Part shown: one piece after another, positions 9,763-32,262 of the stretch
How positions within the stretch are numbered: the first letter of the stretch is position 1
How the letters are laid out: every line of letters begins with the position of its first letter
The notes under the pieces: generated by a model
The model's database searches: none
What the model was told of the DNA's origin: nothing
The model's input: the letters and a program-made list of their open reading frames with translations, nothing else
Position numbers and translations under genes: made by a program
From: a virus
Direction: 5' to 3' (one strand)
Length of the DNA: 64,000 bases
IMG/VR virus record: IMGVR_UViG_3300028388_001285
Coordinates: 17,998-81,997 of that record

Positions 9763-9774
9763 AAATTAGTAGTT

Positions 9775-10227
9775 ATGTCTTGTGAAATCAACGAATACTC
9801 TTCTCACGATTTCAATATTGTCAGCAAAGGCGACTGTGATCCTTGTCCAAGAGACACTGTTCTTGAGGTCAAGGATTCCGCCTTTGTAACTGACTTACAG
9901 GCATTCTATGCCCCTACTAGACTGTACTTTCCAGCTTCTAGTGTGCAAAGTCCTAAGGACGGAGCAATACTAATAGAACTGTACAAAGACGCGACAGTTT
10001 ACTGGAAATACCGATACGGGGACGATACTTGAATCCTCGTAGGTATAAAACGCGACGATGCGTATGAGTCTTTGGATGTCTCAGATCTAGACCACTGTTT
10101 TACAAAAGATGATGAGGGGGGTGACCCAGACGGAGATTTAGCTTGCTATATGTTGGAGATGATTACATGTGATTGTCACGTGTACTTGGAATACTCTTCA
10201 GATCTAGACTGCACCCTATTAACCTAA
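9775..10227 (+). CDS. Cys-rich hypothetical structural protein (150 aa, one TGA=Trp)
   Basis: Frame continues past TGA 10030 (YRYGDDT-W-ILVGIKRD) to TAA 10225-10227, just before the next ATG at 10232. Confidence 0.7.
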
Positions 10228-10231
10228 CCAA

Positions 10232-13200
10232 ATGGCCGGAATTAGAAAATACTTGTATATAACGGATATATCAGCTTGCGACTGAAAGTCGTGTAGTGCT
10301 GGAGCTCTGCGTATTAAACAGTTTACGTTTATAAACGATGAGACTGGAAGTAACGCACCTGCTGTAAGTGCGCCGAATACACTGCCTACATCTCCTGCTG
10401 ATGAGGCTGTCCTAATTGAAACTTGGGATGACATTACCCGTTACTGGGAATACAATTGCGGTACTGGTACATGGTCACATGTATTAGATATTGCGCTGGG
10501 TGCTACTACAACGTTTGTGGCGCTGACAGATACCCCTAGCTCCTTTACTGGAGAAGGGGATAAGTACGTTAAGGTGAATACTGGGGCAACTGCCTTAGAA
10601 TTCTCGAACATAACTGCATCTGAAGTTGTGTCAGTACCATATGGTGTATTAACTTCCACTAATGTGCAGGATGCTCTCAATGAGATACAGACAAACGTAG
10701 ATAGTTTAAGCACTAACTTTACTTTCATAGATCTAGACGATACTCCTGCAACCTATAATGGTTCTGCGGCTGATATAGTCAGAACTAATGTAACTAATAC
10801 CGGGTTGGAATTCCACACACTAACCAAGTCAGATCTTGGTTTGGGCAATGTAGAGAATACAGCATTGTCAACTTGGGCTGGAAGTACGAACATAACTACA
10901 GTAGGAACTATAGGAGCTGGTACATGGCAAGGTACAGCAATAGCTGATGCCTATGTATCTGGGGCTGCGTACTGGGATAGCAAGCAAGATGGATTAACCT
11001 TCGGCATTGCAGATACTAACACAGTAGTTATAAATGCTACAGATGTAGCTGCTTTAGACTATGCACAGTTCACTGTACAAGGTCTGAGAGGTAGGGATAC
11101 ATCTGAAGTCAAACAAGATCTCAGCCTAGAGAATGTAGCTAACGTAGATATAACTACGGTAACTGACGTATCTAGTTATGGCTGGGTACTAGATGAAGAC
11201 GCAATGTCTTCAGACGACGACACAAAAGTTCCAACACAACAATCAGTTAAGGCGTATGTGGACGCAGCTGTAGTTGGAATATATACACACAAGGGAAGCT
11301 ACGATGCTGCAACTAACACACCTGACTTAGATACTAGCCCAAGCGGAATCTCTAAAGGCGATGCTTATACAGTATCTGTTGCAGGTACATTTTTCACAGA
11401 AGCTGTAGAAATAGGTGATGTATTAATAGCAGATCAAGACTCCCCCACACTTCTTAGTCACTGGACTAGGATAAACAAGAACATTGACGTAGCCACTACA
11501 ACCTCAGCAGGTATTGTAGAGTTAGCTACTGATGGAGAAGTCGCTGCCAACGTAGCTGTACAGGGTAATGACTCACGATTAAGTGATGCTAGAACTCCAG
11601 TAGCGCATACACATAGCACGAGCGATATCACTAGTGGTACGTTCGACAATGCTAGAATTGCGGAAAGTAATGTAACGCAACACGTAGCGGCTATAGATCA
11701 CGGCTCCCTAGCTGGAGTCAGTGACGATGACCATACTATGTACACTAGAGCTGATGGTACTAGGGACTTTAGTGCAACAGTGAGCTACGCCTCACACCCT
11801 ACCTTCACCTCTGATACCGAACTGGTAGATAAGAAATATGTAGACGACGAGGTAATAGCTTCTGGAGGCTACAATGACGAAAGCGCGCAGGATGCCATAG
11901 GCACTATACTGTTAGATAGTTCCGAAATTGACTTTACGTATGATGACGGTACTCCAAGTATAACTGCAACATTAGTGAACAGTAGTATCGACGAAACCAA
12001 GTTAGATGTAAGTGTGAATGCTAGTTTAGATTTAGCCGACACTTCACTACAATCTGGTGACAATATTTCTGTACTAACTAATGATTCAGGGTACTTAACC
12101 GGTAACGAGAGTATTACTCTGACCGGAGACCTCAGCGGGACTGGCACCACCTCAATTAATGCGAGCCTTGCTGCTGACACAGTAGGTGTTAGTGAATTGA
12201 ATACCACTGGTACCCCAGACGGAACGAAGTTCCTTAGGGACGATATGACCTGGGTTACAGTAAGTACTTCCGAGAGTAATGACTTGGCAACTGACGGTGT
12301 GACCGGAATAGCTGACGATCAACTAGTGGTAGGTACTGCGAGTGGTACAGCCGCTTATAAAACATTAACTTCAGGAATACTAACTTATGACACTACGACA
12401 AATAATTTTACGTCTATTACTGATAGCAGTTCTAATTGGGACGCTGCCTATACTCATGTTAGTAATAATGGTACTGACCATGCTTACATTGACCAAGACG
12501 TCACTAGTACTGGTACTCCTACTTTTGCTTCTGTTGACGTAGGAAACACGGGACTCACAGTAGGTACTTCTGTACCATTCTCTGATTCAAGTGGAACGTT
12601 GACGTTACAGAATGTGGATGCAATCGACGCAACCACCGAGAGTACATTAGAAGCGGCCCTAGATCATAATAGTCTGCAAGGTTTAACTACAGGAGATCCA
12701 CACACGCAGTATTCATTAGTAGATGGTTCAAGAGATTATACTGCTAAGGTAGCTTATTCCGCACACCCCACATTCACAGCTGACACTGAAATAGTGGACA
12801 AGAAGTATGTGGACGACGCTATAACAGCCGGTGGAGGATACACCGATGAAGATGCACAAGATGCAGTTGCTACTGCACTTACTGATACTAGTGAGATAGC
12901 TTGGACATATGCCGACATAGCTGGTGAGATCACAGCCGACATTGTAGCTGGCAGTATAGATGAGACTAAACTCGACACTAGTGTGAACGCTAGTTTAGAT
13001 TTAGCGGACTCAGCCCTACAGTCGGGAGATAGTGTATCTGATCTAACCAATGATGCTGGGTATTTACTATCTACGGACATAGACACATTAGCGGAATTGA
13101 ACGCTATTGTAGGTGACGCTACACTAATTGACACTACTGATAGTAGGTTGTCAGATGCTAGAACACCTACGGCACACAACCACACAGCGTCAGAGATTAC

Positions 13201-16200
13201 TGATTTTGATACTGAGGTATCGAATAATACTAGTGTGGCTGCCAACACTGCTAAAGAGACTAACGTTACCACAAACTTAGGCTACACACCCAGTCCTACC
13301 GATGGTACTGTTACATCAAGTGACGGTACTGATGCGACGCTTACATTAGCAACGGGTGTGAATGCTGGGCTTTTAGCCCCCGCAGACTTTACTGTATTAT
13401 CTAATACATCTGGTACCAACACTGGAGACCAAGTTGTACCAAGTGACCTTACTGACTTTACTGAGCAGACTGCCTGGAGTGTATTTTACTCCGACGGTGC
13501 TGGAGATGTAACGGAGTTAGCTTTGGGAGCATCTGGCACTGTGTTGCAATCAAACGGCGCAGCTGCCGCACCTACATTTGAAACAACTTCTTCTGTAGAA
13601 GCACTCTCTGATTTAACTGACATAGACGGTCTGAATTACACTGCTGGTAACCTACTGGTAGCTGATGGTACTGACAGCTATGATTCTGGTAAATTGGAAA
13701 CAACAAGCTTAGGTACAGATATATCAGACATGTTTGGCATTGTAGATGGAATGGCATTCGATAAACCATCCCTCAGCATTGCTGATGTAGCTGGCGATCT
13801 AGTATTAAGTGTCACCAACATTGCTGGAGGTGATATGGAATTCTGGATTGGTGGAGAGAAGTCGGTTTTGGATTGCGATCCTACCGCAGCTACAGTTACC
13901 CTCACTGAGGGCACTGACGCTAACACACCTGCTACTAACTACATATATGTAACTAACTCTGGAGGGACTGCGACACTTCAAGCAAGTACAACGTTACCTA
14001 CAGGGGCATTTGCATGGATAGGAAAAGTTGTAGTACCAGACTCAGTCACATGGGGAACTACTGGAGCCTATGCGTTCCAGAGATACACGGAAGCCTTTAT
14101 AAATAGTTCTAGGGGTGCTCTCTCACACGAGCGTGAGAAACTACGGGCCTTAGGTGCTGTATACATTAATGGTGTAAATCAGACACTGACTATAGATACT
14201 GTAGCTTCACCAGATAGTGTACATCTAGAAACTACTACGGGCACAATTTACCAACTACACCGACAAACTTTTCCAGCGTTTACTACTGGACCGTATTACT
14301 ATGGTAATGGTACCAATATATACGAACAGATCAGTGACCTCAATGGGGTTTTGGAATTGGTAGATGGTACAGCCATTGCCGATAACGATAGATATAACTT
14401 AGTCGTATGAGGAGCAGTTAACATAACCACTGGAGAAAGTAAGTTGTTTGTAAACACACCAACTGGTGTCTATTCTTCGGATGCCAATGCAATAGCTGAC
14501 GCAAACAATACAGCAGATTACAGTGTACCAGACGATATGCGATCCGTAGCATTCTTGGTAGCTAGACTAGTGTTGCGGTACGATGCGCAGGGAGGCGGAG
14601 AGTTTAGCGCACTAGGTGACGGAACCTATTCATTGCTGGGCGTACCTGTAGGAGTCAGATCGGGAGGATCTGGAGCTGTAGCTTCTAGTGAATTTTCTGA
14701 CTCACAGTTTAGATTATTCTCTGATACGGATAGTACTGCTCAGATAGCTTTAGATGCAGGTAATGTTACTACTGGAAATGTTCGTACCATAACAATGGCG
14801 GACACCGATGTAGACTTAGCCAATTTGCCTACAGCTGCTGAGAAGACTATACTGGGTAACACTTCAGGAAGTAATACCGGAGACCAAACTACTATAGTAG
14901 GGATCACTGGAACCAAGGCAGAATTTGATGCTGCTGTTACAGACGGCAATTTCTTGTATGTAGGCGATGCTCCAACGGCGCACACTCATACAGCATCAGA
15001 GGTAACAGACTTCGACACTGAAGTAAGTAACAATACAGATGTAGCGGCTAACACATCTGCAAGACACACACAACATACAGATACTGGAACTACCAGCCAA
15101 ACGTTCACACTACACAGCGGAGATGCTTCTCCCGTGAAAGTGAAGAACTCTAGCGGTGAGTTACAGGTAAGAAATAATGCCGATAGTGCTTACGCTGATC
15201 TGCGAGTAGCTAACCTCACTGTAGAGGGCACTACTACCACGATTAACTCAGAGACGCTTACTATCGACGACAATATAATTGTACTCAACAATAATGAAGC
15301 TGGCACTCCTTCGGAGAATGCTGGCGTAGAAGTCGAACGTGGTACTTCAACAAACGCTTCCTTAATATGGGACGAAAGCTCCGATGTATGGAAAGCTGGA
15401 GAGTCCGGCTCTGAAACTGAGATCTCATTGCTTGGACACTCACACTCAATCACTGATGTCACTGGGACTAAGGCACAATTTGATTCAGCCTTATCTGACG
15501 GTTCGTTCGCCTATTCTGGGGACGCTCCGACAGCGCACGTACATGCTGCTTCAGATGTAACATCTGGAACATTCCATAACGATAGGATATCGCAGAGCAG
15601 TGTACTGCAACATGAAGGAGGAATCAACCATGATAATTTGTTTGGATTTTCTAACGATGAACACGTTGCACACAGTACTGTCAGTATTGCCACACAGCAT
15701 TCATTGACAGGCGGCGGCACTATAGCTGCCACTAGAACATTAAATCTAGTCAATGATGCAGCCTCACCAGGCAACAGTAAGTTGTACGGTACAGATGGTA
15801 GTGGCACGAAAGGGTGGTATGATCAACCTATTGCTGGAACAGTTGATGGCAGTGGAGCTGCTGGACAAGTAGCATACTGGTCAGACACTGACACTTTAAC
15901 TAGTAATGCTATACTAAGCTTAAACCCAGGTGGTAATCAAGTAACAATAAATGACGGGGTGTTAAGCCTTGAGGAGCGAGCTGCTGCTATAACTAGCTCT
16001 GCTGGTTACGGGCAGATATGGGTAAAGAATGACAGCCCAAATAACTTGTACTTCACTGGCGATGACGGTGTGGATATAAAGTTGAATTTAGTAGTTGGTA
16101 CTGATGTTCAGGCATACAGCTCTAACCTAGATTCATGGGCAGCAGTAAACGAATCATCTTATTACAACTCTACGGAGACAGACAGTGCGATAAGTACTGC

Positions 16201-18184
16201 TGTAGGAGATTACACTCTGACTACTGACTTGGCATCCACAGCTAACGCTAAAGGGGCTAGTCTAATAGGAATAGAAGATAGTGGGACATTGTTTGCTGCC
16301 ACTAATGTAGAAGCAGCTTTAGCCGAGCTTGCTGGAGCAAGTTATGTAGACGCTACTAATGGTGCGGCCAATCGCATAGCTGTATTCACTGATGTGGATA
16401 CAGTAAATGGTGATGCTGACTTTACCTGGAATGGTACTACGCTAGTAGTTAACGGACAGAGTACGATACAGCAATATAACAATGGAGCTAATAGTGTGTT
16501 TACATATAAAGCTGGAGGACAAGATCTCAACAGCTTTAGAATGGTTACTGATTTAGATAGTTCGGCTAATCTTGAATCCGTCAAATTTACCACATATACG
16601 ACCTCTGCGGCTGCTGATGCAGGACAGTTTATTTTTGAGGTGGATGAAACACAGAAGCTTGTTATTGACAGTGGAGGAATAGAAGTTACAGGAACTATTA
16701 CTGGAGATTTAACCGGTAACGTAACTGGGAATGTCTCAGGAACAGCTGCTACTGTAACAGCGGCAGCCCAACCTAACATTACAACACTTGGGACATTGAC
16801 CTCATTGACGGTAGACACTATAAACATAGACAGTAATAACATAACTGGCTTAAGTGGAAATCTCAACATTACTCCAGCAGCGGGAGGAAGCATCACTTTA
16901 GATAATACAATAGACATTGATGCCGGTGTAGTTACCGGAGCCACGTCAATTACTTCTACCAGTTTTGTTGGAGACTTGACTGGAAATGCTGATACCGTAA
17001 CAACTAATGCGAATCTTACTGGCGAAGTTACCTCTACAGGTAACGCAGCAGTAATAGATTCTACTGCTATATCTAATAAGACTCTAGTGACTGCCGCTAC
17101 TGGCGACATGTTTTTAATTACCGATGCATCTGATTCTGGAAACTTAAAGCGAGTTAATGCCATTGATTTTCTAGGTACAGGTACTGTTACCGCTACTGAC
17201 GGAGCAGATAATCGGATTGCAGTGTTCACTAACTCTTCAAATATTGAAGGTGACGCAGGACTTACTTGGGATGGAGTAGGTAATAAGTTCATTGTTGAAG
17301 GTGATATCCTTATAAATTCTGACGGAGGAAGTCCAAGTTTATCTCTCAAAGAAGACACAACTAATAATGTCGGTCTATATACCACATTCAATTCAGGCAA
17401 TCTAGAGAGAGCTTATATCAACACTAAAAGTGATGGCGGAGCTGACTACGGTAGATTTGAAATCTATGTAAAAGACACTCTAACACTCACACTAGATGAC
17501 GATGGCGCAGATTTAGAAGGAAGTTTGTTCCTTAAAGAGCAGGCAGCCGCTGCCACTGATGTCACAGGTTACGGACAACTCTGAGCTAAGACTGATGGAT
17601 CATTATGGTTCACTGATGATGTGGGAACCTCTACAGATCTACTTGCTGCCGCATCTGGAATGGCAAGCTTTACTGTTACCGCTGACAGCGGGACAAACCA
17701 GACAATAACTAACGCACAAACATTAGACATAGCTGGAGGTACTAATATCACAACTACTGTTGCGGATACCGACACTGTGACCATCAATTTAGATAGTCAC
17801 AATCATACTATGTCAGAACTTAGTGATCGCACTGAGTACATAATGATAAATGAATTCCTCGCAAGTACTACTATCGAGGATGGAGACGGTGAGGTAGCTT
17901 CAATGATACCCGTCGACTTAAACAATTACTATATTATCTCTATGGAAGCTAAAGCTGTTTCAGCTACCGGCTCGGACGCTACTACTGTAACGGTCGAGAA
18001 GAATGGTACGGCAATAACTGGGTTAACTGTGACACTTAATACAGGCAACTCTTGGTACGCTTCCGATACGCCTACTAGCTCGACGCAAGTGGCAACTGGA
18101 GATATACTTAGACTTTCAATTTCCTCTACCACTGGGACCGCCACAGGTTTAGTTGGAGTAATTAAACTGAGGAAAACATCTTAA
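10232..18184 (+). CDS. Giant tail fibre protein (~2650 aa; TGA=Trp at 10283, 14408, 17582)
   Basis: ATG 10232 and ORFs 10517..14410, 14444..17584 and 17621..18184 are one frame separated only by TGA. Fibre motifs include HxH repeats, DLGLGNVEN, VPTQQSVKAYVD and AGVEVERGTSTN; T/D/S/G-rich. Confidence 0.85.
11696..13066 (+). repeat. Diverged internal duplication (~135 aa, two copies) in the tail fibre
   Basis: Copies at ~11696-12097 and ~12662-13066 share HPTFTxDTExVDKKYVDD, AQDA, SIDETKLDxSVNASLDLAD and LTNDxGYL. Confidence 0.85.
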
Positions 18185-18206: not shown

Positions 18207-19907
18207 ATGCCTCAATTTTTTGTAGACGCAAATAGAACTGCTTTTGACGCGAAGAAAAGAACTTTGCCAACGGAGATTTATTTGCCAGTAAATTTAGGAC
18301 GTGCGACGGCAAAAGATACTACCGATTCTGTCGGTTCGTTTTTGGGTGCAACTCCCTCTGACTCAGTTAACTTGTGGGAATGGATTGAATACAAAAGTGC
18401 AGCTGACCCTGTAACTGATGTAGCAGATCTTAGAACCCTATCTGGAACTTCTGACGGAGATTCAACACTTGGTACCTTCACCGGATCAACTGTTGCTGAT
18501 GGAGAAACGATTAAGGGAGCTATCCAAGATTTGGAAACTGCTTTCGAAGCGCTTACTGCGCCATCGTATTACGCAGATGTAGTATCTACTACTAATGTAA
18601 CTTTGTCTGGGGAACAGACTATTGACGGAGTATTAACTTCTGCCAGTAGAGTTCTCTTAACAGGGCAAACAGATACCTCTGAGAATGGAGTGTACACAAC
18701 TGCTGCTGGAGCATGGACTAGAATTCCAGAATTAAACAGTGCTGGCGAGTTTACTAAAGGTAAACTTATCTCAGTACTTAGTGGAACAACTTACTCTGAC
18801 ACTGTTTGGATGAACCAAGCGGCTGTCGAAACCCTTGAAACAAGTGGTATTACCATATCCCCACTTAGCGCTACTGCTATAGTACTTGATACTACACCAC
18901 AGCTTGGTGGAATGCTTGACGTAAACGGACAAGCTATTGGAGATGGAACTAACGAACTTATAGTATTTTCTGAAACTGGCTCAGCCGTGAATGAAATTAC
19001 TATTACTAACGCAGCTACTGCTGGTGCTCCTAGCATTACAGCTAGTGGTGATGATACCAATATTGCTCTTAACCTTGACGGTAAAGGTACTGGAGATGTT
19101 ACCATCTCTGATTCTAACCTTGCTGTTACTGGCAACATTACTGTTACTGGTACTGTAGATACCAGAGATATCGCAGATGATGGTGACGCTATAGACAACT
19201 TAGTCACCTTGAGTGGTGTAGCTAAAGATGCAACTAGTGTTGGAACAATTGACGAAGGTGCTATTATCTCTGACACTACTATAGTAGGAGCTCTTGGAGA
19301 ACTTTCCGTAGACCTCGACGCTATGCGTATTCTCAGTGGGGTTGCTGCTGAAGCTGTTGATTTAGGAGCTATCGCTGGCGGCAATGTCGTCACTGATAAC
19401 AGTACTATACTCACGGCAATCACTGAGCTCGACGTAGATCTTACGGCATTACAAACTGCTGTTGGAATTAATGCAGAAGCTACTCACTTGGGAGTATTCT
19501 CAGGTACAACTATTAGCGATAATCAGACTGCTAAGGCTGCGATTCAAGCTTTAGAGACTGCTCTCGAAGTAGAAGAAAATACTGGCTACATCAGCCTTAC
19601 TAAGGTAGGAGCTGTTGCTGATGGTAATCACGACTTGTTCGTAATCCCAGCCGCACTGAATGGTTTAGACATCAAACGTGTCGATGTAGCTGCTGCTTCT
19701 GGTGCAGGTACTTGTGATGTACAACTCACCTCTGGTGGTGATAATGTACTCACATCTGCTCTAAGTATTAGCGGAACAACTGCTGCTTCATCTACTGGTA
19801 TAGCAGATGGAGGACTCGCAACTGGTGAACTCTTGATTGCAGTTATAAGTAGTTATTCAGCTACCCTGACCGACATGGCAATAACTGTAACATACGGACC
19901 TGCGTAA
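18207..19907 (+). CDS. Second tail fibre/spike protein
   Basis: LSGEQTIDGV...RVLLTGQTDTSENGVY and DTTPQLGGMLDVNG fibre modules; LGxFxGxTIxDxxTxKxAIQxLETA repeats. Confidence 0.75.
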   Translation: MPQFFVDANRTAFDAKKRTLPTEIYLPVNLGRATAKDTTDSVGSFLGATPSDSVNLWEWIEYKSAADPVTDVADLRTLSGTSDGDSTLGTFTGSTVADGETIKGAIQDLETAFEALTAPSYYADVVSTTNVTLSGEQTIDGVLTSASRVLLTGQTDTSENGVYTTAAGAWTRIPELNSAGEFTKGKLISVLSGTTYSDTVWMNQAAVETLETSGITISPLSATAIVLDTTPQLGGMLDVNGQAIGDGTNELIVFSETGSAVNEITITNAATAGAPSITASGDDTNIALNLDGKGTGDVTISDSNLAVTGNITVTGTVDTRDIADDGDAIDNLVTLSGVAKDATSVGTIDEGAIISDTTIVGALGELSVDLDAMRILSGVAAEAVDLGAIAGGNVVTDNSTILTAITELDVDLTALQTAVGINAEATHLGVFSGTTISDNQTAKAAIQALETALEVEENTGYISLTKVGAVADGNHDLFVIPAALNGLDIKRVDVAAASGAGTCDVQLTSGGDNVLTSALSISGTTAASSTGIADGGLATGELLIAVISSYSATLTDMAITVTYGPA

Positions 19908-19917
19908 AAAACTAACA

Positions 19918-20436
19918 ATGAAATATCTACTGTCTTTACTACTGATGTTAACTATGATCATGAGCTTAAATGCTCAACGCAATGATTATAGACTATGATT
20001 TACACAACTAAGTGTACAAGCACCGATATGTATTGACGGAAGAACTGAAGCATACAAAGAGTTTGGGCACAGTCCTAACTTTGAGTGGGAGGCTGGATAC
20101 GAATGGCACTTGGATGCCGGATGAATCGCTCCAGTCACCCAACTCACGTATGCAGTTGACCGAGATATATTCAAGCATAAGTCTAGAAGTTACCTCCGAT
20201 TAAAGCAGGGGTTTGACTTCTTACCTGATGAAGATAGTGATCTCATAGTATTCTTACCTATTCGGAATATCAGGTTAACTGGATGGAAGTTCTGGAAAGG
20301 AGAATACAATTCCCCATTTCTTACCGAGATGCGCTGGAGGTACAACGACGATTGAAAATTTAGACTGGCTTGGGAATTCTATAAGGATACCTTTCTTGTA
20401 AGAGCCGGAGTCACAATAAACATATACAAATGGTAA
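19918..20436 (+). CDS. Signal-peptide-bearing, outer-membrane beta-barrel-like protein (172 aa; absent from the ORF track)
   Basis: MKYLLSLLLMLTMIMSLNA-Q signal peptide; TGA=Trp at 19996, 20122 and 20353; alternating amphipathic strands; ends VRAGVTINIYKW-TAA. It fills the gap between its neighbours exactly. Confidence 0.7.
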
Positions 20437-20909
20437 TTACAACTGCAAGTGATTGTGGCAGTCTAACTGTTACGTCACCATTGTTTGTAGATTCACAAGA
20501 GCCCACATATACACTTGAATACAAGTCTTGTGGTGACACAGAGTTTACTACGATGGATATAACGTTCGGTACTGGGATACCGCAATATACCATTACCCCA
20601 ACTATGCTTGGACAAACGGATGAGATTTGTGACGGTATCTACTGTTTCAAACTCACTGCTACTTATACTGACGAATCCATAGCTGTGGAGTATGCTCAGG
20701 AGTTTGTAGATTGTGTTGCCAAGTGTAATATAGTAGACATTATGATGGAGACTTTGAGCTCGGATGTTCGTCAATGGTACGAAGCCGTGCATGACTCCAC
20801 TGAATGTTTCTACTGTGATTGCGAAAAGACTTGTGACCTATACCAAATCTATTTAGATATAGTGGCCAATTCAGAGGCCAACCTAAGTAATCCCTGCACG
20901 AAATGCTAA
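20430..20909 (+). CDS. Cys-rich tail-associated protein (possible tail hub)
   Basis: 159 aa; DGIYCFKL motif and CxxCxC cluster; located in the tail module. Confidence 0.45.
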   Translation: MVITTASDCGSLTVTSPLFVDSQEPTYTLEYKSCGDTEFTTMDITFGTGIPQYTITPTMLGQTDEICDGIYCFKLTATYTDESIAVEYAQEFVDCVAKCNIVDIMMETLSSDVRQWYEAVHDSTECFYCDCEKTCDLYQIYLDIVANSEANLSNPCTKC

Positions 20910-21211
20910 CCTATAAATGCGTTGCAACGCACCTGCGACATAAAGGCGTTCTAGAAAAGAAGTACGGCTTGCACTGCAAGACTGGGGACTGCTATGCGTC
21001 TATCGCAACAGAGTATAGAAATATATACTTTATTAGAAATAACTCTAGCTGTTTAGATACGGATTCATGCATTCCTACCAAACCTTTAAGTTGTACAGGA
21101 ACTCCCATCTGTCCAAGTATACTCAGTAATTGTGAACTCACATTAACTGATATTACACCGATAGATACAAACTGCACCGTATTTGGGATAGTACAAAACC
21201 CTACAGTATAA
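20903..21211 (+). CDS. Cys-rich hypothetical tail-associated protein
   Basis: 102 aa, overlapping both neighbours. Confidence 0.5.
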   Translation: MLTYKCVATHLRHKGVLEKKYGLHCKTGDCYASIATEYRNIYFIRNNSSCLDTDSCIPTKPLSCTGTPICPSILSNCELTLTDITPIDTNCTVFGIVQNPTV

Positions 21212-22701
21212 TGATAACAGTAACTATAAATTTAAGTATAACTGGAGGGACAGCCCCTTTTAAGTACTGGGTAACACACACTTGTCCAGACGCTGTTGTG
21301 ATAACGAATCCTACTGGCACATCTACTACTGATACTATAGATGTGACCGTACAGTTTCCGAACACGACAGTTCTAACTAATTGTGCTAACCTGTTTACTC
21401 TTAGAGTGGAAGACGCTTTAGGATGTATTGGAGAGTGGAGTATCGGATTTCATAATCCATGTGTAGATTTTTCTTTAGGCACTGTACAAAATTCTGCTCC
21501 ATATACCTACTGGGTTAGCCCTACAGGTAACAATGGACCAGTGACGTACTCATGGTCAATACCTTCATTCATGGAGTTCTTGAACAGTACCAGTACAGAT
21601 GACGTAATACATCTTAAGATTAAGGATAATTACTCACCTCCTGCTGGGGGTATATCTGGAACTATCACTGTCTTTGGTACCGATGAGGTAGGGTGTACAG
21701 CAACTGCTACTACTGTAGTCAGTGTATGTAAACCTACAGCATTTGAACAAGAGTACTCAGCTTACTGTACTGGTAACGGGGAAGACCCATTCTACATAGT
21801 AGAGTGGTTGCCGATCTGAGATCCAGCAATCTCTCCTTGTGAGGAGGGTCAGTGGGCTACAGTAAATGGCGTAAGCGATTCCATCAAGGATTGGTATAGA
21901 GTGGATACAGGGGTACAAGAAACCTCTATTAGCACTGAGTTAATATTTGACGGGAAGATACAAGCTAGACCATTCTTCAGTCAAGATTTAAGCTTAACAG
22001 ATCCAGTGACGTACAAGGCAGTTTACACAGTAACTACTTTGAACGGTGTTGTGACTGACCCTACTACTCTACTACTCACAGTATATCCATGTGAAGAGGG
22101 AGGAAGACCTATGGGCATTACTTTAAATGCACAGGCTAACTGCCTTGGAGATGATATAGAACTTGACTTAGAGGACATAGTACACTCTAGCAGTAGTACT
22201 ATTGACTGGACCACATTCAACATAATCACTGACGCAGCTGTTGCAGGAGCTACAACCTCTTGGGATGGTGTAACCAGAACGCTGACTTACAGCCCTGGTG
22301 TACTAGCTGGAGTAGATAAAGTTGAATGGGAAGTAGCTGATGCAAACGGTATATTCTCAGGAAAGATAAACATTTACTTTGATTTGGACTGTCCGGCTGT
22401 GATTACAGCCACTGACGACACGGCATGTGTAGTCTGCGGAACTACTACAAGTATAGACGTACTTGCAAATGACGTAGGAGACTTTGACCCACTGTCGTTA
22501 CAGATAGCTCAGTTCCCACAATATGGAGCTGCTACCGTAATCAATAACGAAATAGTTTACACCATCCCAGCCAATGTAGCTGGAACGGATGTAATCAAAT
22601 ACCAAGTTAAGAATAGAAATCATACCGGGGTATCTAACCTCGGAACCTTAGACATAGAAATAGTATGCGCTGGTTCAGATAACTCTACTTTAGCTTGCTA
22701 A
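21211..22701 (+). CDS. Ig-like/cadherin-like (Big_9-type) multidomain fibre protein, one TGA=Trp
   Basis: ORFs 21211..21819 and 21901..22701 are joined in frame through TGA 21817. Motifs ITGGTAPFKY and ATDD...TSIDVLAND...PQYG...IVYT...GTDVIKYQV. Confidence 0.75.
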
Positions 22702-22729
22702 TTTAAATAAACCTATAATATAATATAAA

Positions 22730-23305
22730 ATGGCTTGTACATTTAATTTATTTGATAGACTTACTGGTACACCGCAGACTGGGGGAACTTGGTCAAAAGA
22801 TGGTGGTAACCCACAAGACGTTGTGTTGACTGGAGCTCACTTAGGAACTTTCGATCCTTCAGGGCTAGTCCTGGGAACTTACACGTTTACCTATTCTGTA
22901 GGTGCCGTGCCTTGCGACGATACAGCTGATGTTGTAGTAACCGTTAACGCGACCGCAGTGGCTGGTGATGACGTATCCAAGACTTATTGTACCACTGATA
23001 CCACACAATACAACCTGTATAATTTGATTACAGGTAGTCCGGATTCGGACGGTGATTGGCAAGCTGGCACATCTGGTGTAACTTCAGCTGGTTATGACGA
23101 TAACAGTACTTCAACTGTTACTGACGATACGTTCCAACCTAGCTTAGTGGCAGAAGGTACCTACGTGTTCATCTATAACGTGAATCATGGTGATGGTAAT
23201 ACACCTCCTGGTTGCGATAGTTGTACCGACAGCTCTACTTTAACTATTAACGTAGTTGCAACTGGTGACGCAGGTGGAAACGGCGTAGCTACTGCTTGTA
23301 ACTAA
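22730..23305 (+). CDS. Ig-like repeat protein resembling Bacteroidota surface-adhesin repeats
   Basis: Two repeats of NLFxxLTGxPxxGGxW...FxPS...GTYxFxYxV...C.D...V.V.V...AG.D/N. Confidence 0.7.
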   Translation: MACTFNLFDRLTGTPQTGGTWSKDGGNPQDVVLTGAHLGTFDPSGLVLGTYTFTYSVGAVPCDDTADVVVTVNATAVAGDDVSKTYCTTDTTQYNLYNLITGSPDSDGDWQAGTSGVTSAGYDDNSTSTVTDDTFQPSLVAEGTYVFIYNVNHGDGNTPPGCDSCTDSSTLTINVVATGDAGGNGVATACN

Positions 23306-23321
23306 TAACTAACTACAACAC

Positions 23322-23726
23322 ATGGCTTCTACTAGATTTTTATTTGATCATTTAACTGGAAGCCCTGACAGCACTGGATCATGGACTCTGGTCTCAGGGC
23401 CGGGTAGTGATGCAGACCTAAAAGTAAATGGTACCCCGCAGACTATCACTTATGGTAACTCTGTGGGTACTAACTACTTTGTTAACATAGGGTTTGACTC
23501 TACTATAGGAACTGCAACTGGTGTGTACGTATTTAGATATACTACTGGTGTATCTCCTTGTGAGGATACTGCTGATGTGACGATTACTGTATCTGCACCA
23601 CCGACTTTTGATGTATCTGAGGATATATGCCTATGCCATTCAGGTACAGATGTAACGGAAGATATATGTAATTGTCAGGTAGTGGATGTTGGTACAAATA
23701 CAGCAGATACGATATGTTTCACATAA
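23322..23726 (+). CDS. Ig-like repeat protein, paralogue of 22730..23305
   Basis: FLFDHLTGSPDSTGSW...GVYVFRYTTGVSPCEDTADVTITV, followed by a Cys-rich C-terminal tail. Confidence 0.7.
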   Translation: MASTRFLFDHLTGSPDSTGSWTLVSGPGSDADLKVNGTPQTITYGNSVGTNYFVNIGFDSTIGTATGVYVFRYTTGVSPCEDTADVTITVSAPPTFDVSEDICLCHSGTDVTEDICNCQVVDVGTNTADTICFT

Positions 23727-23736
23727 ATAAACAATT

Positions 23737-24450
23737 ATGGCTGACTTTCTTTTAAAAGATTTTGACATACTTAATGGTGGAGACGGTACTCCATCTGTAG
23801 TAGATCCAGGAGGAGCTTGGAGATTAACCGCAGCCCCCGAAGATTACAATGGATACATTCGTTTCGATACTCCACCTAATGGAGATCAGGCGGTAGCCGT
23901 TGGGCAATTACTACCCGGAGACGATGATCCCAAGATCTTGTTCACAACTGGCAGAGGTAAATTCGTTCTGACGTATGAACTTTCTGGAGAATGTGATCAG
24001 ACCGACGACTACACGATGTGATACATGGAAAATGATTACTTTGTCCATGCCAAGGATATAGGCGTTATAGCAAATGGCGACACTTTTGATAGCAAGGTTT
24101 TGTCTTGTTACCACCGATCCGATAATCCTGGATTACCGTCTACTAGCAGCGTCAATGATGAGGACTGCTGGTTCACATTCACGACACCCTCTTCTGGGGG
24201 ATTCATTGGACAAAGTTTGAGTATTGACAGTATAAATACTGACGAGCTGGAGAACCCACAAATTCGTATTTACTCTGATTACGATACCGAGATTAATGAA
24301 ACCTCTGTTATTACAACCTCTTCGCAGCAACGTAGAGAATACACAGGAGTAAACAAATGGACTACAAATACTCAGTATTGGGTATGGGTGTCTAATCTAA
24401 ACACTAGTAGTCCTGGAGGGGAATTTAGATTTACATTTCAATGGTACTAG
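23737..24450 (+). CDS. Ig-like paralogue with C-terminal beta-sandwich domain, one TGA=Trp
   Basis: ORFs 23737..24021 and 24025..24450 are in frame through TGA 24019. DPGGAW N-terminal motif; DCWFTFT...QYWVWV domain. Confidence 0.7.
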
Positions 24451-24453
24451 AAC

Positions 24454-25788
24454 ATGGCAACAATTAATTTAAAAACAAAACACGAAGAACTTGTAGGAGG
24501 TTCTGTGGACCCAGGAGGTACTTGGACAATCACCGATCACGATGGTGGGTTCCCAGTCTCCATAACTGTAGATGGATCATCAAGCTCTTATGCGGACAAT
24601 GATACAATAGGATCAGATGACAACCCCGAAGTTGCTTTTGCTTCTAGAGGAGTCTATGAGTTTACGTACTCAGTATCAGCTGGGTGTGTAGCGGCTTCGG
24701 CCACAATGACTATTACAGTGCAGGGTCCAGCAGCGAGTATCACTGACGATACATCTAGCTGTACATACGAGATCTCTTTAACTAATCCTACCAGTGGAAC
24801 TAATCTCACAGCAGATTTGTCTGTGGCGAACAACTCCTCTGATATAACATTAGAGATGCGTAAAACTATCGACCGAACTTGCTCACCAGTAGCAGGTTGG
24901 ACTGAAGTAAACATCTTAGATGAGACGCTAACAGCCACAGGACAGCTGTGGTCGGGCGTTCGACAGGCAGATGGAGCCTTCCTATACGACGGAGATTATA
25001 TAACGACTCTGCGCATTTATAGGAGTTATCCAAACAACTTCATGCTAGTCAATCTTAATCCTACTACCTCTCCATACCTTACAGGTGTGTGCGGTACAGT
25101 GGATGCCAATGATTTACTGTATGATGGTAGCTCCCCAAATACATTCGCTACCGCAGTTAAATGCGTGATAAAGAATGCTATACACGGTTACTGGGGCTTA
25201 ACCGAAAATACGAACTATAACATAGAGGTACTAGCATCTGGAGCTTCAGGCTCTGGCAGCATCAGTATACGATTCAAAGCTAAGAACAACCCTACTACAA
25301 GCCCAGCTTGGGTAGGTATTGACAGTTTGAATATACTCATGAAGTACTACTCTAATGGTACACTTACAGATAGTTATTATACAAATGGATTTACAGCAGC
25401 AGCTGTAGTGAATTCCTATGTCATCTCTGACAGTACTCCTTGTGGAGTGTTAGGAGGCACTTGGACTCCAGCTGCAATTCCTTTCTTGGATGAAAACCAT
25501 TTGACCTATAACTCAATTGTGCCGACAGTTACGACACTAACGTACTCCCCGTACGGAAGCCCTACTACATCCGTGAACTGCTCAGTGACTCACTTAGACG
25601 CTGACGATACACAAAGTTGTAGTCAAGGCAGGACATATCAGTGGGAAATAGATACTGGAGGCGGCTATGTCTCGCAAGGTAGCACCACTGAGGTTATAGA
25701 TGTTACGACTGCGGGTGACTATCGCGTCACGATCAGTTGCTTAGATCAAGGGTGCAGCAATGTTTCTGCGCCTGTGACAGTGACGTAA
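24454..25788 (+). CDS. Ig-like paralogue with C-terminal Ig domain; possible fibre tip or receptor-binding protein
   Basis: DPGGTW...GVYEFTYSVSAGC N-terminal domain; C-terminal TYQW...GDYRVTIS...GCS...VTVT. Confidence 0.65.
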   Translation: MATINLKTKHEELVGGSVDPGGTWTITDHDGGFPVSITVDGSSSSYADNDTIGSDDNPEVAFASRGVYEFTYSVSAGCVAASATMTITVQGPAASITDDTSSCTYEISLTNPTSGTNLTADLSVANNSSDITLEMRKTIDRTCSPVAGWTEVNILDETLTATGQLWSGVRQADGAFLYDGDYITTLRIYRSYPNNFMLVNLNPTTSPYLTGVCGTVDANDLLYDGSSPNTFATAVKCVIKNAIHGYWGLTENTNYNIEVLASGASGSGSISIRFKAKNNPTTSPAWVGIDSLNILMKYYSNGTLTDSYYTNGFTAAAVVNSYVISDSTPCGVLGGTWTPAAIPFLDENHLTYNSIVPTVTTLTYSPYGSPTTSVNCSVTHLDADDTQSCSQGRTYQWEIDTGGGYVSQGSTTEVIDVTTAGDYRVTISCLDQGCSNVSAPVTVT

Positions 25789-27091: not shown

Positions 27092-27980
27092 ATCGGTTCT
27101 ATACGATTTGTCTACGCTTGTTCCAGAGAACGAATGGAATGACTTAAAGTTTACGGAGTGAGCTATTAAAGCCCTACGTAAGTTGAAGTCTGAAGTTAAA
27201 TTAGAAGAGGCCGTAGCTATTAGGAATCTAGTAGAACACAAAGCGCAGCTGCCTAACGATCTAACGTATCTTACGCAAGTTGCCTACCGACCAGAGTTAC
27301 CATCTGATGAGATAGAGGAACTCACACGAATCATGAATCTCCAAGGGGAAGAGTGGAACACAGCGGTAACAGACCATATGTTTAATCCTAGCGGACTTCC
27401 AGAGAAAGCCGTACGATCATTATATGCGTCTGGTTTGAACAAGTGGTACCCAATGCGAGCTTCTAGTTCTCCATTTATGTCTGGAATACTTATTACTGGC
27501 ACTCCTTACAACAGCGTAGATTGGACAACTCCTAACTTGCAGGGGGATCACGAATACATAGTCGATTCAAGCATGTGCTTAACGTCGACGCTCTCTGATG
27601 CGGTGTTAGCTATATCGTATATGAGATACCCCGTAAAAGCTAATGGGGACACACTTATACCCGACGATGAGGATTTGAAAGAAGCAATAGTACACTACTG
27701 TCTGTATAGATACTGGTTGACTAGAAGTTTCTTACGTGAACCAAACGCCGACAAAGAAAGAGACTATCATCTGTCACGGTACGAGGTGTTAATGGCCAAG
27801 GCTGGCGGAGAATTAAACTTACCTACTTTAGATGAATTAGAAAACCTCAAGAACCTGACTAACCGATTAGTTCCTAGATCTAATCAGTACGACAACTTCT
27901 TTAGTAAGTTGAACAACAGGGAATCTGCTGACACCATGTCACACTGAGGTAATCATGATACTAACAATTATGCCAACTAA
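27063..27980 (+). CDS. Tail tubular/ring protein (P22 gp4-like), TGA=Trp at 27159 and 27945
   Basis: ATG 27063 gives MTRIRYTSIKSVL...FTE-W-AIKAL, in frame with 27183..27947. Motifs LIPDD and PTLDELENLKN. Ends TAA 27978-27980. Confidence 0.75.
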
Positions 27981-30900
27981 ATTTAACAGTTCGAATACAT
28001 TTCAGGCTGGTATGAACAAGGATGTTAATCCTAAGTTTCAACCTAAGGGAACCTATCGGTTCGCTCTGAACGCTGTGTTAGAGGTTAAGGAAGGTTTGCA
28101 AGGTAGTATACTTAATGAGATTGGTAACACATTCTGCCAAGTGATTCACGATGAATCAGGCGCTACTATAGTAGGACATGTACTGACTGATACTAGAGAC
28201 ATAGTATTGTTCCTAGCATTCCATTCTGGTAACTCTGCGATAGCAACTTGGAACCCTGATACATGTGAGTACACGGAGTTGCTGAAAGGTAACTGCTTAA
28301 ACTTTAGTACTAAGCATCCAGTGTTCGCACAGTTTAGAATACGAGGTGGTTGTGACAGGGTAATATACTTCACGGATAAACACAATCCATATAGAGTATT
28401 TAACTTAGACCAACTCAACAGATATAAAGATTCTGACGGGGATGTAGATTGTGATAGATTACTTTACTCTAGGAACGTAGAACGCCCTTGCATTAATGTT
28501 GATAGAATCAACGAAGGTGGCGGACTCCTACCCATAGGGGCTTATCAGGTAGCTGTTCAATACTTGGACGAAGAACTTAACCCGACTAATTATTTTTATA
28601 TTACTGATGCACTTTACCTTGCAGATGAATCACTGAACTCTCTCAATGAAGAGATAGATGGTGGATTCAATATCGTAGACCCAGACGCAAATATACTCGG
28701 CGGAGTACCTTTAGCTAACAAATCAATTACGTGGTCGCTGTCTGATCTAGACACCAACTTCTCGTATTACAAGTTAGCTATATTGGTTTCTGAATCTGCT
28801 ACAGGAAGTCTCAGTTCTGCCTATGAAACAGACGAGCAGACTATATCTGGTACAGAGGATTTCTACACGCTAAGTAACTTAGAGGATATCAACTTTACTT
28901 CTATAGACAACGTCATTGTGGATCGTCCTGCGATAAACAAAGTAACTGACCATGCACAGTTGGATAACAGATTGTGGTTGGCAGGTACAATGAATGACGG
29001 ATACGATTGGGCAAAGGTGCAGCAAGCAGCTAACACTATCACTTCTAAGTGGACTACGGATACAGTTCCAACGAGGGAGACCAAACGGTTTCCAGAGTAC
29101 CAAGTTAAGTTGCGTAACTACATGCGTGATGAAGTTTATGCATTCTCTATATGGGGAGTGTTTGCTAATGGTACAAGAACTCCAGCTTTCCATATCCCTG
29201 GAAGGGAGACGATGGTTAACCCAGGAATAGGTGATGAGACTGATAATTACAGAACATCGGTACCAGCAGGAGCGAATTGGGATACTTATCCAGTAACTAT
29301 TGGAGGCTTGAATGCTTACAATAAAAGTAACAGCATAGCTTCACTAGAGGATGTGAAACACTTAGGTTACGAGGCTTCTGACATAGGAGAGACTATTGAT
29401 CGTTGGAGAATATACAACACTGCTACGTACGATGACTTTGAGAGGACTGAAGGGGAGATGGCATACTACGAGTGTAACACTAGGTACCCTGACCTGAAAG
29501 ACTGTAGCGGGGATTTCATATTCCCAACTACGACAATAGACGGTGAAATCGTACCGGCAAATGTACGTCATCACAAGTTTCCTGATACTAAGACTAGTCC
29601 ATTATTTAGAGCTGGTGACTTAGATGCGCTAGCTTGTTTAGGTATCAAATTTGATCTGTCACAGTTCTTGGCGGACGTAGGAGATATTGAGGTTGAAGGT
29701 TGAGTTATCGGTGTAGCAAGACGTAACGCTACAAACAGAACTATATTTGACAAAGGATTACTGTTTGCTGGACAAACTTCAGACAAAGACCTTGGAGGCG
29801 ACACTCCACGTATAGGCAAAGATGATGTGATCTTCACAGGTTGGTTAGCTGACAGGGCTGTTGGACATAACCTAACACATACACCTAAAAGTGCTTGGTA
29901 CTTCTCACCTAAAGAAACACACGCACGACCAGCAATTGCAGGTTCGTACGTAAAACTGGAACGTTTACACCCATCAAATATCGGTTACATACAAAGTGAC
30001 ATACGATACTGGTTCGGTACTCTTGGTACCTCATTAACCCCAGTGTTTGATTTTGGTGGTCGTGGACAATTCTTACCACTAGACACGTACACCTACATGG
30101 ATCGAGTGGAATTTTACACGGTGGAAATTATCGACGGACCACCGCTTGGTAGTAGTAACCCATGAGGGGTAACACAAACTAGCGCCTCAGGTACTAAAAT
30201 ACGTACCCATATTTACTCTAGACATATGCTGAACCTAGAGTTTGAAGAAGACTATAGGTATCACCAGTTTAGTACCGACATACAGGCAACTAGTGGAGTA
30301 CGTAATGACGCTTGTTATGTAAGTATTAAGACTAACAACGAAGTGTACCCCGATCTAGAATCTGTTATATATCATCCAGTATCTAATTGTTATTACACCA
30401 ATGGCACTACTGTCTACGGTGGTGACACATTTATAGGTAGATATCATACGACCACAAAAAGCACGTTAGATAAAGGCCCTGATGAAAAAGACTTGGGGGA
30501 TAGAAGTTTGATTGCTGCGTATGTTGAATCAGAACTTAACCATGAGTACAGGCATGACGGTATCTTAGAGGATTGGCAGTCCACTTGGAAAGGTGAACTG
30601 GTTTACAATAATCAGAATAACAATGAAACTATCCGGGAGTACTTAAGCCCGGAGATTGACTTTTCTGATATCGAAGCAGACAGAAACCCAGCTGATTACT
30701 TTGGATACAATAAAGATTTCCAGAAGTTGAACAACGAGAAGCCTAACTTCCCATTGTCAGACTCGTATGATTACTGTGATGCTTGTCCAAACAAATATCC
30801 ATATAGAATCATGTACTCTGAGAAATCATTCCAAGAAGAATTGGTAGATAATTATTTAATTGTAAAGGCTAACAACTACAGAGATTTAGATGGAGACTCC

Positions 30901-32262
30901 GGACCAATTACCAGACTCTTCACCGACAAGGATAACCTATTCGCACTATCCACTAAAGCTTTATGGACTGTACCTACTAGGCCACAGACGTTGCAAACAT
31001 CTGAGGGTACTATATATGTAGGTACAGGAGATGCGTTGGCACTACCGCCAAAGCGTGTAGTTTATCCTGGGTTTGCTTACGGAGGCACTAAGGATATATT
31101 GTCACTAGTCAGTACAGAGTATGGGAGTGTATGGGCAGATAGTCTAACAGGTAAGGTATTTCATTGGCGAGGACAATTGGAAGAGATCTCTTCTAATGGT
31201 ATGCGTAACTGGTTTGAAGAGAATACTAAGTCTAAGATAAAGGAACAGATGTTTGCTTTCTCTTTGGAGAACAACATACCAAGCGTACCAACTGATTTAT
31301 ATGGTGTAGGTCTAGTGGGCACGTATGATCCTAGATATCGAAGATACATATTAAGTTTCCGTGACTACGAGATACTTGACATGGAGAACTTCGAAGGTGG
31401 TGTGGAAGGATTTGAATCATTAACCTCTTACAATCCTAGTAAGCTATACTTTGACCTAACTGCGGGAGACTTCTTTAGGGTTAAGTACATTGCTGCTACT
31501 GGTTGGTACAAATTACCTATACCGTATTTGGATAGAAACACATTCCGTAACAGATCTTGGACGGTGTCATATTCATTTCCACACAAGGCTTGGGTGAGCT
31601 TTCACTCATACTTACCAGCATACATGTTCAATGATGAAGATACATTCTATACTGGATTACATAATAGTCTGTGGATGTTCACACATAACTACGGGGAACA
31701 TCAGAAATACTATGGAAAGAAGTACGACCATATACTAGACTTTATCGTGAATGAGCAACCAATACTGGATAAGACTTATAGTAGCCTTAAAGTAATAAGT
31801 GATATCAGTCGGTATGATGAGGAACACGAGAACTATATAGAGTCTCTGCTAGAGTTCTTCACATATGGTATGTTCTACAACTCCAACCAAACTAGTGGTA
31901 AGCAACAGATATTTAGGAAGGACGGTTCAAGTCCATTCTTGTCTACATATGATAACCAGAATCAAATGGTACTGGCAGAGAAAGTAGATGAGCACTGGAA
32001 TATATCTGGGTTTAGGGATCTAGGTATAGGACATAACTCCTACCCAATATGGACAAACGCTTGGGATGAAGTACAGTCTGACTATTATATAGATAAGGTA
32101 CCTAACCCGGAAGCCATTGAGACAGACAAGAGTCTGTTTAATCACGGCAGGTTTAGGGATGCTTGGCTAGGCGTACGACTATACCATGATGGTGAAGTAC
32201 AAGGTAACTACAGAATAAACACTGACCTAATTAATACACTACAAAGAATATCTTATAGGTAA
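27970..32262 (+). CDS. Tail stabilisation/muzzle protein (P22 gp10-like), ~1430 aa, TGA=Trp at 29701 and 30163
   Basis: Motifs NTFQAGMNKD, CLNFSTKHPV, YMRDEVYAF, YPYRIMYSEKS, SWTVSYS and WVSFHSYLP. Three track ORFs are in one frame. Confidence 0.88.

Follow-up and report, generated by a model that had tools for sequence, protein, structure and literature searches.

Five genes in the tail module of a crAss-like phage

The DNA analysed here, hereafter the window, is a stretch of 64,000 nucleotides (positions 17,998 to 81,997) that forms part of the 82-kb IMG/VR virus record IMGVR_UViG_3300028388_001285. Between positions 21211 and 25788 it carries, on the plus strand, five consecutive genes for proteins with immunoglobulin (Ig)-like domains, and the gene borders fall inside a repeated domain, leaving some proteins with a spare strand and their neighbours without one. 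The virus is identified as crAss-like by the protein encoded at 4583-6055, which matches the Crassvirus major capsid family (Crass_capsid, E 1.8e-80). The five genes are sited among capsid, fibre, ring and muzzle genes, the setting of a Crassvirales tail module. More precisely, the large fibre genes at 10232-18184 and 18207-19907 lie on one side of them and the ring and muzzle genes on the other, the muzzle protein (27955-32262) matching crAss_MUZ and its gene being followed by a giant open reading frame (ORF) of 5470 amino acids (aa).

ORFs and translations were made under genetic code 4, in which TGA is read as Trp, and this listing merges many fragments into long genes. TGA read-through gives the 2650-aa fibre gene at 10232-18184 and the 1435-aa muzzle gene at 27955-32262; in-frame TGA codons occur at 21817-21819, at 24019-24021 and in many other genes of the window, within which no tRNA genes were found. 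Under this code the five genes occupy 21211-22701, 22730-23305, 23322-23726, 23737-24450 and 24454-25788. An earlier sequence-only reading of this DNA had quoted gene limits whose coordinates are all correct, but 21211-22701 is one ORF only if the TGA at 21817-21819 encodes Trp, which merges 21211-21819 with 21901-22701. Likewise, it had the right start for the ORF at 23737, but with the TGA at 24019-24021 read as Trp the segments 23737-24021 and 24025-24450 merge into one 237-aa gene. The motifs quoted in that reading (the AGDDVSKTYC junction, the gene ends, and the DPGGAW and DPGGTW heads) were all recovered in place.

The first gene (21211..22701, 496 aa, one TGA read as Trp) encodes what we call the base protein. 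It consists of Ig-like domains of another kind, with a Big_9 domain near the C-terminus (Pfam E 9.7e-11), followed by an orphan copy of the repeat's first strand; the protein terminates in ...VCAGSDNSTLAC. This donor tail, CAGSDNSTLAC (residues 486-496, 22666..22698), aligns to positions 26-40 of the repeat profile. The second gene (22730..23305, 191 aa) encodes the connector, made of a strand-less domain (residues 1-73), a complete domain (75-178) and an orphan tail (179-191). Its head reads MACTFNLFDRLTGTPQTGGTW, its internal junction is AGDDVSKTYC followed by TTDTTQYNLYNLITGSPDSDGDW, and its end is AGGNGVATACN. The intact version of the junction is thus preserved within the connector, where the internal (cis) first strand of domain 2 (22955..22990, AVAGDDVSKTYC) is modelled as extended at residues 82-87; the donor tail lies at 23261..23302 (...ATGDAGGNGVATACN). 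At the first junction a Cys is present on both sides, in the base tail (...STLAC) and in the MAC head of the connector; the tail Cys had been pointed out before, while that of the MAC head had been overlooked.

The third gene (23322..23726, 134 aa) encodes a second connector or adaptor, which starts with a strand-less domain (head MASTRFLFDHLTGSPDSTGSW) 45% identical to domain 1 of the 22730 product and continues into a Cys-rich C-terminal region ending in ...TNTADTICFT. Read from the translation, this region holds three tandem strand-like motifs of 13-16 residues (23607..23723; DVSEDICLC, DVTEDICNC and TNTADTICFT), among which only the last resembles a canonical first strand by coupling-energy scores. 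These three Cys motifs could be three donor strands, making the adaptor a branch point, or could form a small disulfide-knotted cap. The last two genes encode tip candidates. That at 23737..24450 (237 aa, with the TGA-encoded Trp at 24019-24021) has a strand-less head (DFDILNGG...DPGGAW) joined to an unrelated beta-rich C-terminal domain and gave weak family matches only. That at 24454..25788 (444 aa) has a strand-less head carrying ...DPGGTW (profile positions 50-112) followed by more Ig-like domains; an Atlas search with it returned weak Ig_7 leads only. The set thus falls into three classes, donor-only (base), donor-plus-acceptor (connectors) and acceptor-only (tips).

Along the genes at 21211, 22730, 23322 and 23737, each is in the +1 frame relative to the preceding one, and the four downstream genes all start with ATG GCT (Met-Ala). 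On the upstream side, a 172-aa ORF with three TGA codons (code 4) lies at 19918-20436, between fibre genes. It is followed, directly upstream of the base gene, by two small overlapping genes, 20430-20909 and 20903-21211, whose products are very Cys-rich (12 Cys in 159 aa and 9 Cys in 102 aa) and gave no family matches. These products may serve the base protein as anchors or partners.

The repeat unit and the ownership of its first strand

An exhaustive phmmer search with the 191-aa connector retrieved 943 representative proteins at E <= 0.001 and 130 at E <= 1e-30, with a best E value of 1e-163. The best matches are proteins of one to four thousand residues with up to 29 matched stretches each, at 33-48% identity per repeat, and the bacterial homologues that were sampled carry CHU_C or Por_Secre_tail sorting domains of the type IX secretion system (T9SS). 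The metagenome loci with the repeat were bacterial adhesin genes only; the genes that follow them appear to be PorP/SprF-like and OmpA-like, as read from length and N-terminal sequence only. By its sequence relatives, the unit is a PKD/cadherin-like repeat of about 80 residues otherwise found in long arrays of giant Bacteroidota T9SS adhesins. Its signature, AG.D.....C / LF..L.G.PD.GG.W / Y.Y.V...C..D.A.V.V, is present in the phage proteins. The repeat has no dedicated model in Pfam or NCBIfam, and in Pfam it gives a weak K319L-like PKD match. Because the repeat belongs to Bacteroidota adhesins, the phage probably infects a member of this phylum.

The bacterial adhesins (SprB/CHU-type cargo) share the repeat family with the phage proteins, but each of them strings up to about 30 repeats together on one chain, which also bears a signal peptide and a sorting domain. 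In the phage proteins both of these elements are missing, and the gene borders interrupt the repeat itself. Indeed, Pfam detected no T9SS sorting domain (CHU_C or Por_Secre_tail) in the five phage proteins, and their N-termini lead straight into a domain with no sign of a signal peptide. The possibility that they are phage-encoded T9SS cargo was rejected on these two grounds. The closest solved tandem arrangement is the GhpA grappling hook of Aureispira (PDB 9fly), which compares with the connector model at a Foldseek TM of 0.46 (20% identity) and a VIA-align Z of 5.9 (14% identity).

The position of the gene borders takes its meaning from the domain to which the AG.D.....C strand belongs. Mean-field direct-coupling analysis was applied to 1757 repeat windows cut from 146 homologues. 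Among the top 100 couplings, 21 link the strand to the downstream domain and none links it to the upstream domain. Couplings between the strand and the G strand keep a constant offset of 67-70 columns and therefore point to a parallel register of the A strand with the G strand; other couplings correspond to an antiparallel pairing of the strand with the LF..L.G segment. Structure prediction provided a second, independent line of evidence. AlphaFold2 modelled the connector at a mean predicted local distance difference test score (pLDDT) of 86.9 from an alignment of 54 rows, composed of orthologues and of two-repeat windows set in register, and at 37.6 without alignment. When individual solved domains (Ig, PKD, cadherin and NCAM) are aligned with this model, the match spans residues 74/75-177/178, strand 76-87 included. 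Both lines agree in assigning the AG.D.....C strand to the downstream domain. Connector residues 1-73 accordingly form a domain without its strand and residues 179-191 a strand without its domain. Had AG.D.....C been the last strand of the upstream domain, the gene ends would be plain domain borders.

Profile alignment locates the cut more closely. Donor proteins end at the position of the strand's Cys (40 or 122), one of them a residue later (123), and acceptor starts, extrapolated to residue 1, fall at profile positions of about 37-42; the head of the 23737 product matched the profile too weakly for placement. The gene break therefore sits about 12 residues inside a structural domain and not at a domain border. 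The earlier proposal that four proteins start with a domain minus its first strand, and that three end in an orphan copy of that strand, is in this way backed by both the couplings and the domain alignments.

Conservation of the split in related phages

The connector has eight orthologues of 186-223 aa, 41-54% identical to it and called as separate proteins. All carry a MAC head (MTC in one) and an AG.....T.CN tail, and the residues invariant in the family are M1, C3, C62, C87, C162, C165, A181, G182, T188, C190 and N191. Head and tail are its best conserved segments, with pairwise identities of 0.58 and 0.55 against 0.48 overall. The base protein has four full-length relatives in other phages, at 24-30% identity, which end in CAGSDAFIELCN, CAGQDTNITICE, CAGADSEIATCE and CAGDNTTILTCS; all of them terminate in C-AG-x-D-x5-C plus zero or one residue. 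Conservation in the base-family alignment is 0.26 overall; it rises to 0.56 in the top windows of 13 columns and has a mean of 0.46 over the final 13, so that the donor tail lies within the best conserved part. Pattern scans of viral contigs found no close relatives of the connector.

Two related genomes, G001 (106.6 kb, complete) and G005 (110 kb), were reached through their capsid and base proteins, and the gene layout was compared across the three genomes. Capsid proteins of relatives are 67-78% identical. In G001 a tailed base is followed by a 244-aa acceptor-only protein, and a 320-aa MAC-head protein is encoded at some distance. G005 has, in this order, a tailed base, a 230-aa acceptor-only protein, a 207-aa connector orthologue (MAC head, AG...CNTP tail) and a 745-aa MAC-head protein. 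Every donor is directly followed by an acceptor, and the same donor/acceptor layout is found in both relatives. Between the genomes the tips are dissimilar, while the base and its tail are similar. The MAC-head tips of the relatives (L020:14908-15870 for the 320-aa protein and L023, minus strand, 9400-11637 for the 745-aa protein) end in ...GGICI and ...DGCL; both have a Cys two residues from the C-terminus and lack the AG.D strand signature. The upstream Cys-rich pair has counterparts in G001 (L020:1521-2015 and 1996-2358) of similar size, Cys content, N- and C-terminal motifs and position, and in G005 a counterpart of the first of the two genes only (L021:2680-3201).

The split point, whose conservation had been named as a check, is thus kept in eight connector orthologues, in four base relatives and in the layouts of G001 and G005; variable break points, the case named as refuting the idea, are ruled out by the same splits. 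Recent pseudogenisation or fragmentation was rejected, the break points being kept at 24-54% identity.

Another way to account for the split would be recoding (frameshift, read-through or ribosome hopping) that fuses the ORFs into one long adhesin-like protein. This would fit the +1 steps leading from 21211 through 22730 and 23322 to 23737, and the first junction, GCT TGC TAA with ATG GCT TGT 28 nt later, offers a conceivable pair of take-off and landing codons. However, the remaining junctions have no such matching codons, the target frames are closed by a TAA located after the stop but ahead of the following ATG (22721-22723 and 23310-23312), and the 22730 gene terminates in a double TAA TAA. 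Furthermore, all downstream genes start with an ATG-Ala of their own, preceded by an A-rich leader, and starts and ends are conserved in the orthologues at 41-54% identity. We therefore regard recoding as highly improbable, and ORF fusion by this route was rejected because of the closed target frames and the double stop after 22730.

A proposed plug-and-socket joint and its place among known systems

From the split topology and its conservation, we propose that these proteins are joined by trans strand complementation in plug-and-socket fashion, giving a base-connector-tip fibre with exchangeable tips, a reading based on sequence and on a single-chain model that we hold with moderate confidence. 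The five genes would encode parts of one thin, bead-like virion fibre of adhesin-type Ig-like domains. With gene borders placed just after the A strand, each upstream protein would end in a free A strand, and in the first domain of the downstream protein the A-strand site beside the last (G) strand would be empty. The free C-terminal strand would insert at this site, running alongside the G strand in parallel orientation, and form a non-covalent joint. The order would run from base (21211) to connector (22730), adaptor (23322) and then alternative tips (23737 and 24454), and the conserved base tail would serve as a universal socket partner that lets phages exchange their tips. Binding, subunit order and any disulfide lock formed after release from the cell are inferred.

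Several arguments lead from a divided domain to an association of the two parts. The orphan strands keep the canonical signature, whose AG residues are coupled to the core of the domain on which the strand normally packs, and they are more constrained than any other part of their proteins; most likely for these reasons they still pack on such a domain. Only the heads of the proteins encoded next to them are domains without an A strand. The bacterial single-chain arrays, which hold strand and domain on one chain, are fused homologues of the split proteins and so provide a Rosetta-stone argument for their association. Self-complementation of the 22730 product is unlikely, since its tail exits from the far end of the rod-like two-domain model through a 4-residue linker, and it is also unlikely for the base protein, which has no strand-less repeat of its own.

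A coupling-energy score, which separated held-out cis from non-cognate strand-domain pairs with an area under the curve of 0.71, gave +11.7 for the true cis pair, +8.4 for the connector tail on its own head, +7.3 for this tail on the adaptor head, and +10.5 and +6.7 for the last adaptor tail on the two tips. These energies favour the gene-order pairs as a hint only. They also bear on the pilus-like polymer envisaged in the sequence-only reading, in which 22730 would form a head-to-tail shaft of indefinite length, disulfide-locked, with 21211 as primer and 23322 as cap. The connector has both a head and a tail, and the scores of this tail on the connector head and on the 23322 head are similar; in addition, the invariant C162-x-x-C165 lies beside the duplicated junction Cys (C3 and C190), with which it could pair in trans. 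Against this stand the six Cys of the connector, which also allow three intramolecular bonds, and the reducing cytoplasm in which phages assemble. Moreover, G001 lacks a two-domain connector with head and tail: the base is directly followed by a tip, and the one profile match there is the 320-aa MAC-head protein, which has no donor tail. Since G001 does without a two-domain connector, a polymer is not essential to the system, and we consider such a shaft quite improbable.

A number of observations weigh against trans complementation. Domain 1 of the connector is modelled at pLDDT 83-94 without the strand, so heads may be stable alone, and some Ig-like folds can do without an A strand at the sheet edge. 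In the monomer model the connector tail is coil of lower confidence, its position being judged from the secondary-structure line and pLDDT and not from coordinates. The coupling-energy score is poorly calibrated, the cognate donor being best in 40% of columns versus 25% by chance. For the adaptor 23322, a word-based search found no orthologue. The six Cys of 22730 are compatible with fully intramolecular pairing, and Cys counts among base relatives are inconsistent (14, 15, 19 and 20). Finally, membership of the five proteins in the virion is assumed from gene position only, PHROGs giving no matches. Neither PHROGs nor NCBIfam yielded a useful match for the five proteins, the GenBank phage collection had no match at the DNA or protein level, and BFVD returned generic Ig-like phage proteins only. 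For the stretch itself, neither a sequencing run nor an RNA holder was listed.

Part of these observations would suit a rival explanation in which the genes encode independent Ig-like proteins with roles in decoration, adhesion or mucus binding. Their heads would be stable without the A strand, as the confident model of domain 1 and the position of the strand at the sheet edge allow, and their tails would bind another virion component, for which the conserved Cys-rich products of 20430-20909 and 20903-21211 just upstream are possible alternative partners, or would carry a Cys for a covalent link. The tails nevertheless retain the canonical A-strand signature with its invariant AG, coupled in the arrays to the core of the downstream domain; donor and acceptor types stand in adjacent genes with the same layout in three genomes; and the fused homologues carry the strand as exactly the element that the heads lack. 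Independent proteins appear unlikely.

The Cys residues raise the separate question of a covalent lock. With a parallel register, the strand Cys and the G-strand Cys lie at opposite ends of their domain, and linker couplings connect columns 40/41 with 109 and 25 with 92/94. This suggests that disulfides in adhesin arrays run from repeat to repeat and not within one repeat, linking a first-strand Cys to the G-strand Cys of the repeat that follows. Both Cys are lost together in 4/19 cases versus 47/1684 (Fisher p 0.002), but these are few, related events, and we take co-loss as suggestive only. We found no description of repeat-to-repeat disulfide stapling in T9SS adhesin arrays. If arrays do hold inter-repeat disulfides, a split junction would naturally carry inter-chain ones. 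The C162-x-x-C165 motif of the connector (window 23213-23224) does not vary among the nine proteins of its family, is missing from the canonical adhesin repeat, and is found together with the duplicated junction Cys (C3, C190). The two elements could pair. Cys parity was rejected as evidence for inter-chain bonds because it is inconsistent among base relatives. Disulfides occur in the virions of crAss001, the fibres of which have not been resolved (PMC10172136). Taken together, these elements may be combined into a bolder reading: crAss-like phages of aquatic Bacteroidota would build a pilus-like chain, serving in part of host recognition, from separately encoded adhesin Ig modules with C-terminal donor strands, without a protease, stapled by disulfides after release, with CxxC taking part in the lock and the base tail acting as a universal plug for tip swaps. 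In it, these bonds would take the place of the disulfides that link domains within the single-chain adhesins of the host. We put this combination forward tentatively and consider it doubtful as a whole.

The proposed plug-and-socket joint is a variation on a kind of joint already known and not an unprecedented one. The likeness to chaperone-usher and type V pili drawn in the sequence-only reading fits the latter, whose polarity resembles that predicted here, but not the former, whose polarity is the wrong one: here the donor is C-terminal, and it would replace an N-terminal strand in parallel orientation. In type V pili (FimA/Mfa1) a C-terminal donor strand takes the site of the N-terminal strand in the next subunit, also in parallel (PMC13655056), by protease-mediated strand exchange (Shibata et al. 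2020, as cited in PMC13655056). The topology predicted for the phage proteins from sequence and a single-chain model, with an N-terminal strand site parallel to G left empty and a spare strand at the C-terminus, would fit such an insertion. However, the N-terminal strand of type V pilins is made and then cleaved off by a protease, whereas in the phage it is absent from the gene; and the pilins, which are lipoproteins, adopt a double transthyretin-like fold, whereas the phage proteins have a PKD/cadherin-like fold and a presumed virion setting. No match to pilin families was found for the five proteins in Pfam or NCBIfam. Chaperone-usher pili (Fim, Pap, Caf1) likewise complete an Ig-like subunit with a neighbour's strand and follow a logic of base, shaft, adaptor and tip, but they lack the C-terminal G strand and receive an N-terminal extension in antiparallel orientation, where the phage proteins lack the N-terminal A strand and have a C-terminal donor. 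They also need a periplasmic chaperone and an usher; no PapD- or PapC-like genes turned up in Pfam scans of the neighbours, although no search aimed at them was made.

Closer precedents exist among phages, and the earlier statement that none was known was too strong, since the BppU-BppA baseplate joint of the host-recognition proteins of Lactococcus phage Tuc2009, in which a C-terminal hairpin of BppU completes an Ig-like (titin-like) domain of BppA, is published (PMC4742702). That joint is single and consists of a two-strand hairpin entering a C-terminal domain, whereas here a single first strand would enter an N-terminal domain in a joint repeated along the genes; the Tuc2009 repeat family is also unrelated to the present one, and the joint proposed here is predicted from sequence and a single-chain model, not seen in a structure. 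In Pseudomonas podophage A1002 the nozzle is split so that a domain of one protein receives its missing strands from another protein, and beta-sheet augmentation docks the chain-like fibre units (PMC13730344). The parts concerned there are blades of a beta-propeller and dimers carried on a rope protein, and no head-to-tail chain of Ig-like domains is involved. A full-text literature search combining strand complementation, phage and virion returned nothing relevant.

Tail fibres decide host range. In crassviruses they are the least resolved part of the sole structural atlas available (PMC10172136). If the strand-and-socket joint is real and conserved as proposed, tips would be exchangeable as cassettes, which would explain why a conserved base is followed by variable downstream genes in three genomes. 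It would also supply a rule to predict which fibre genes assemble together, of use for host-range engineering in laboratory phage-host pairs, and a handful of recombinant proteins would suffice to test it directly. Furthermore, it would mean that a phage took over a cell-surface adhesin repeat of its host and turned a single chain into a multi-subunit assembly.

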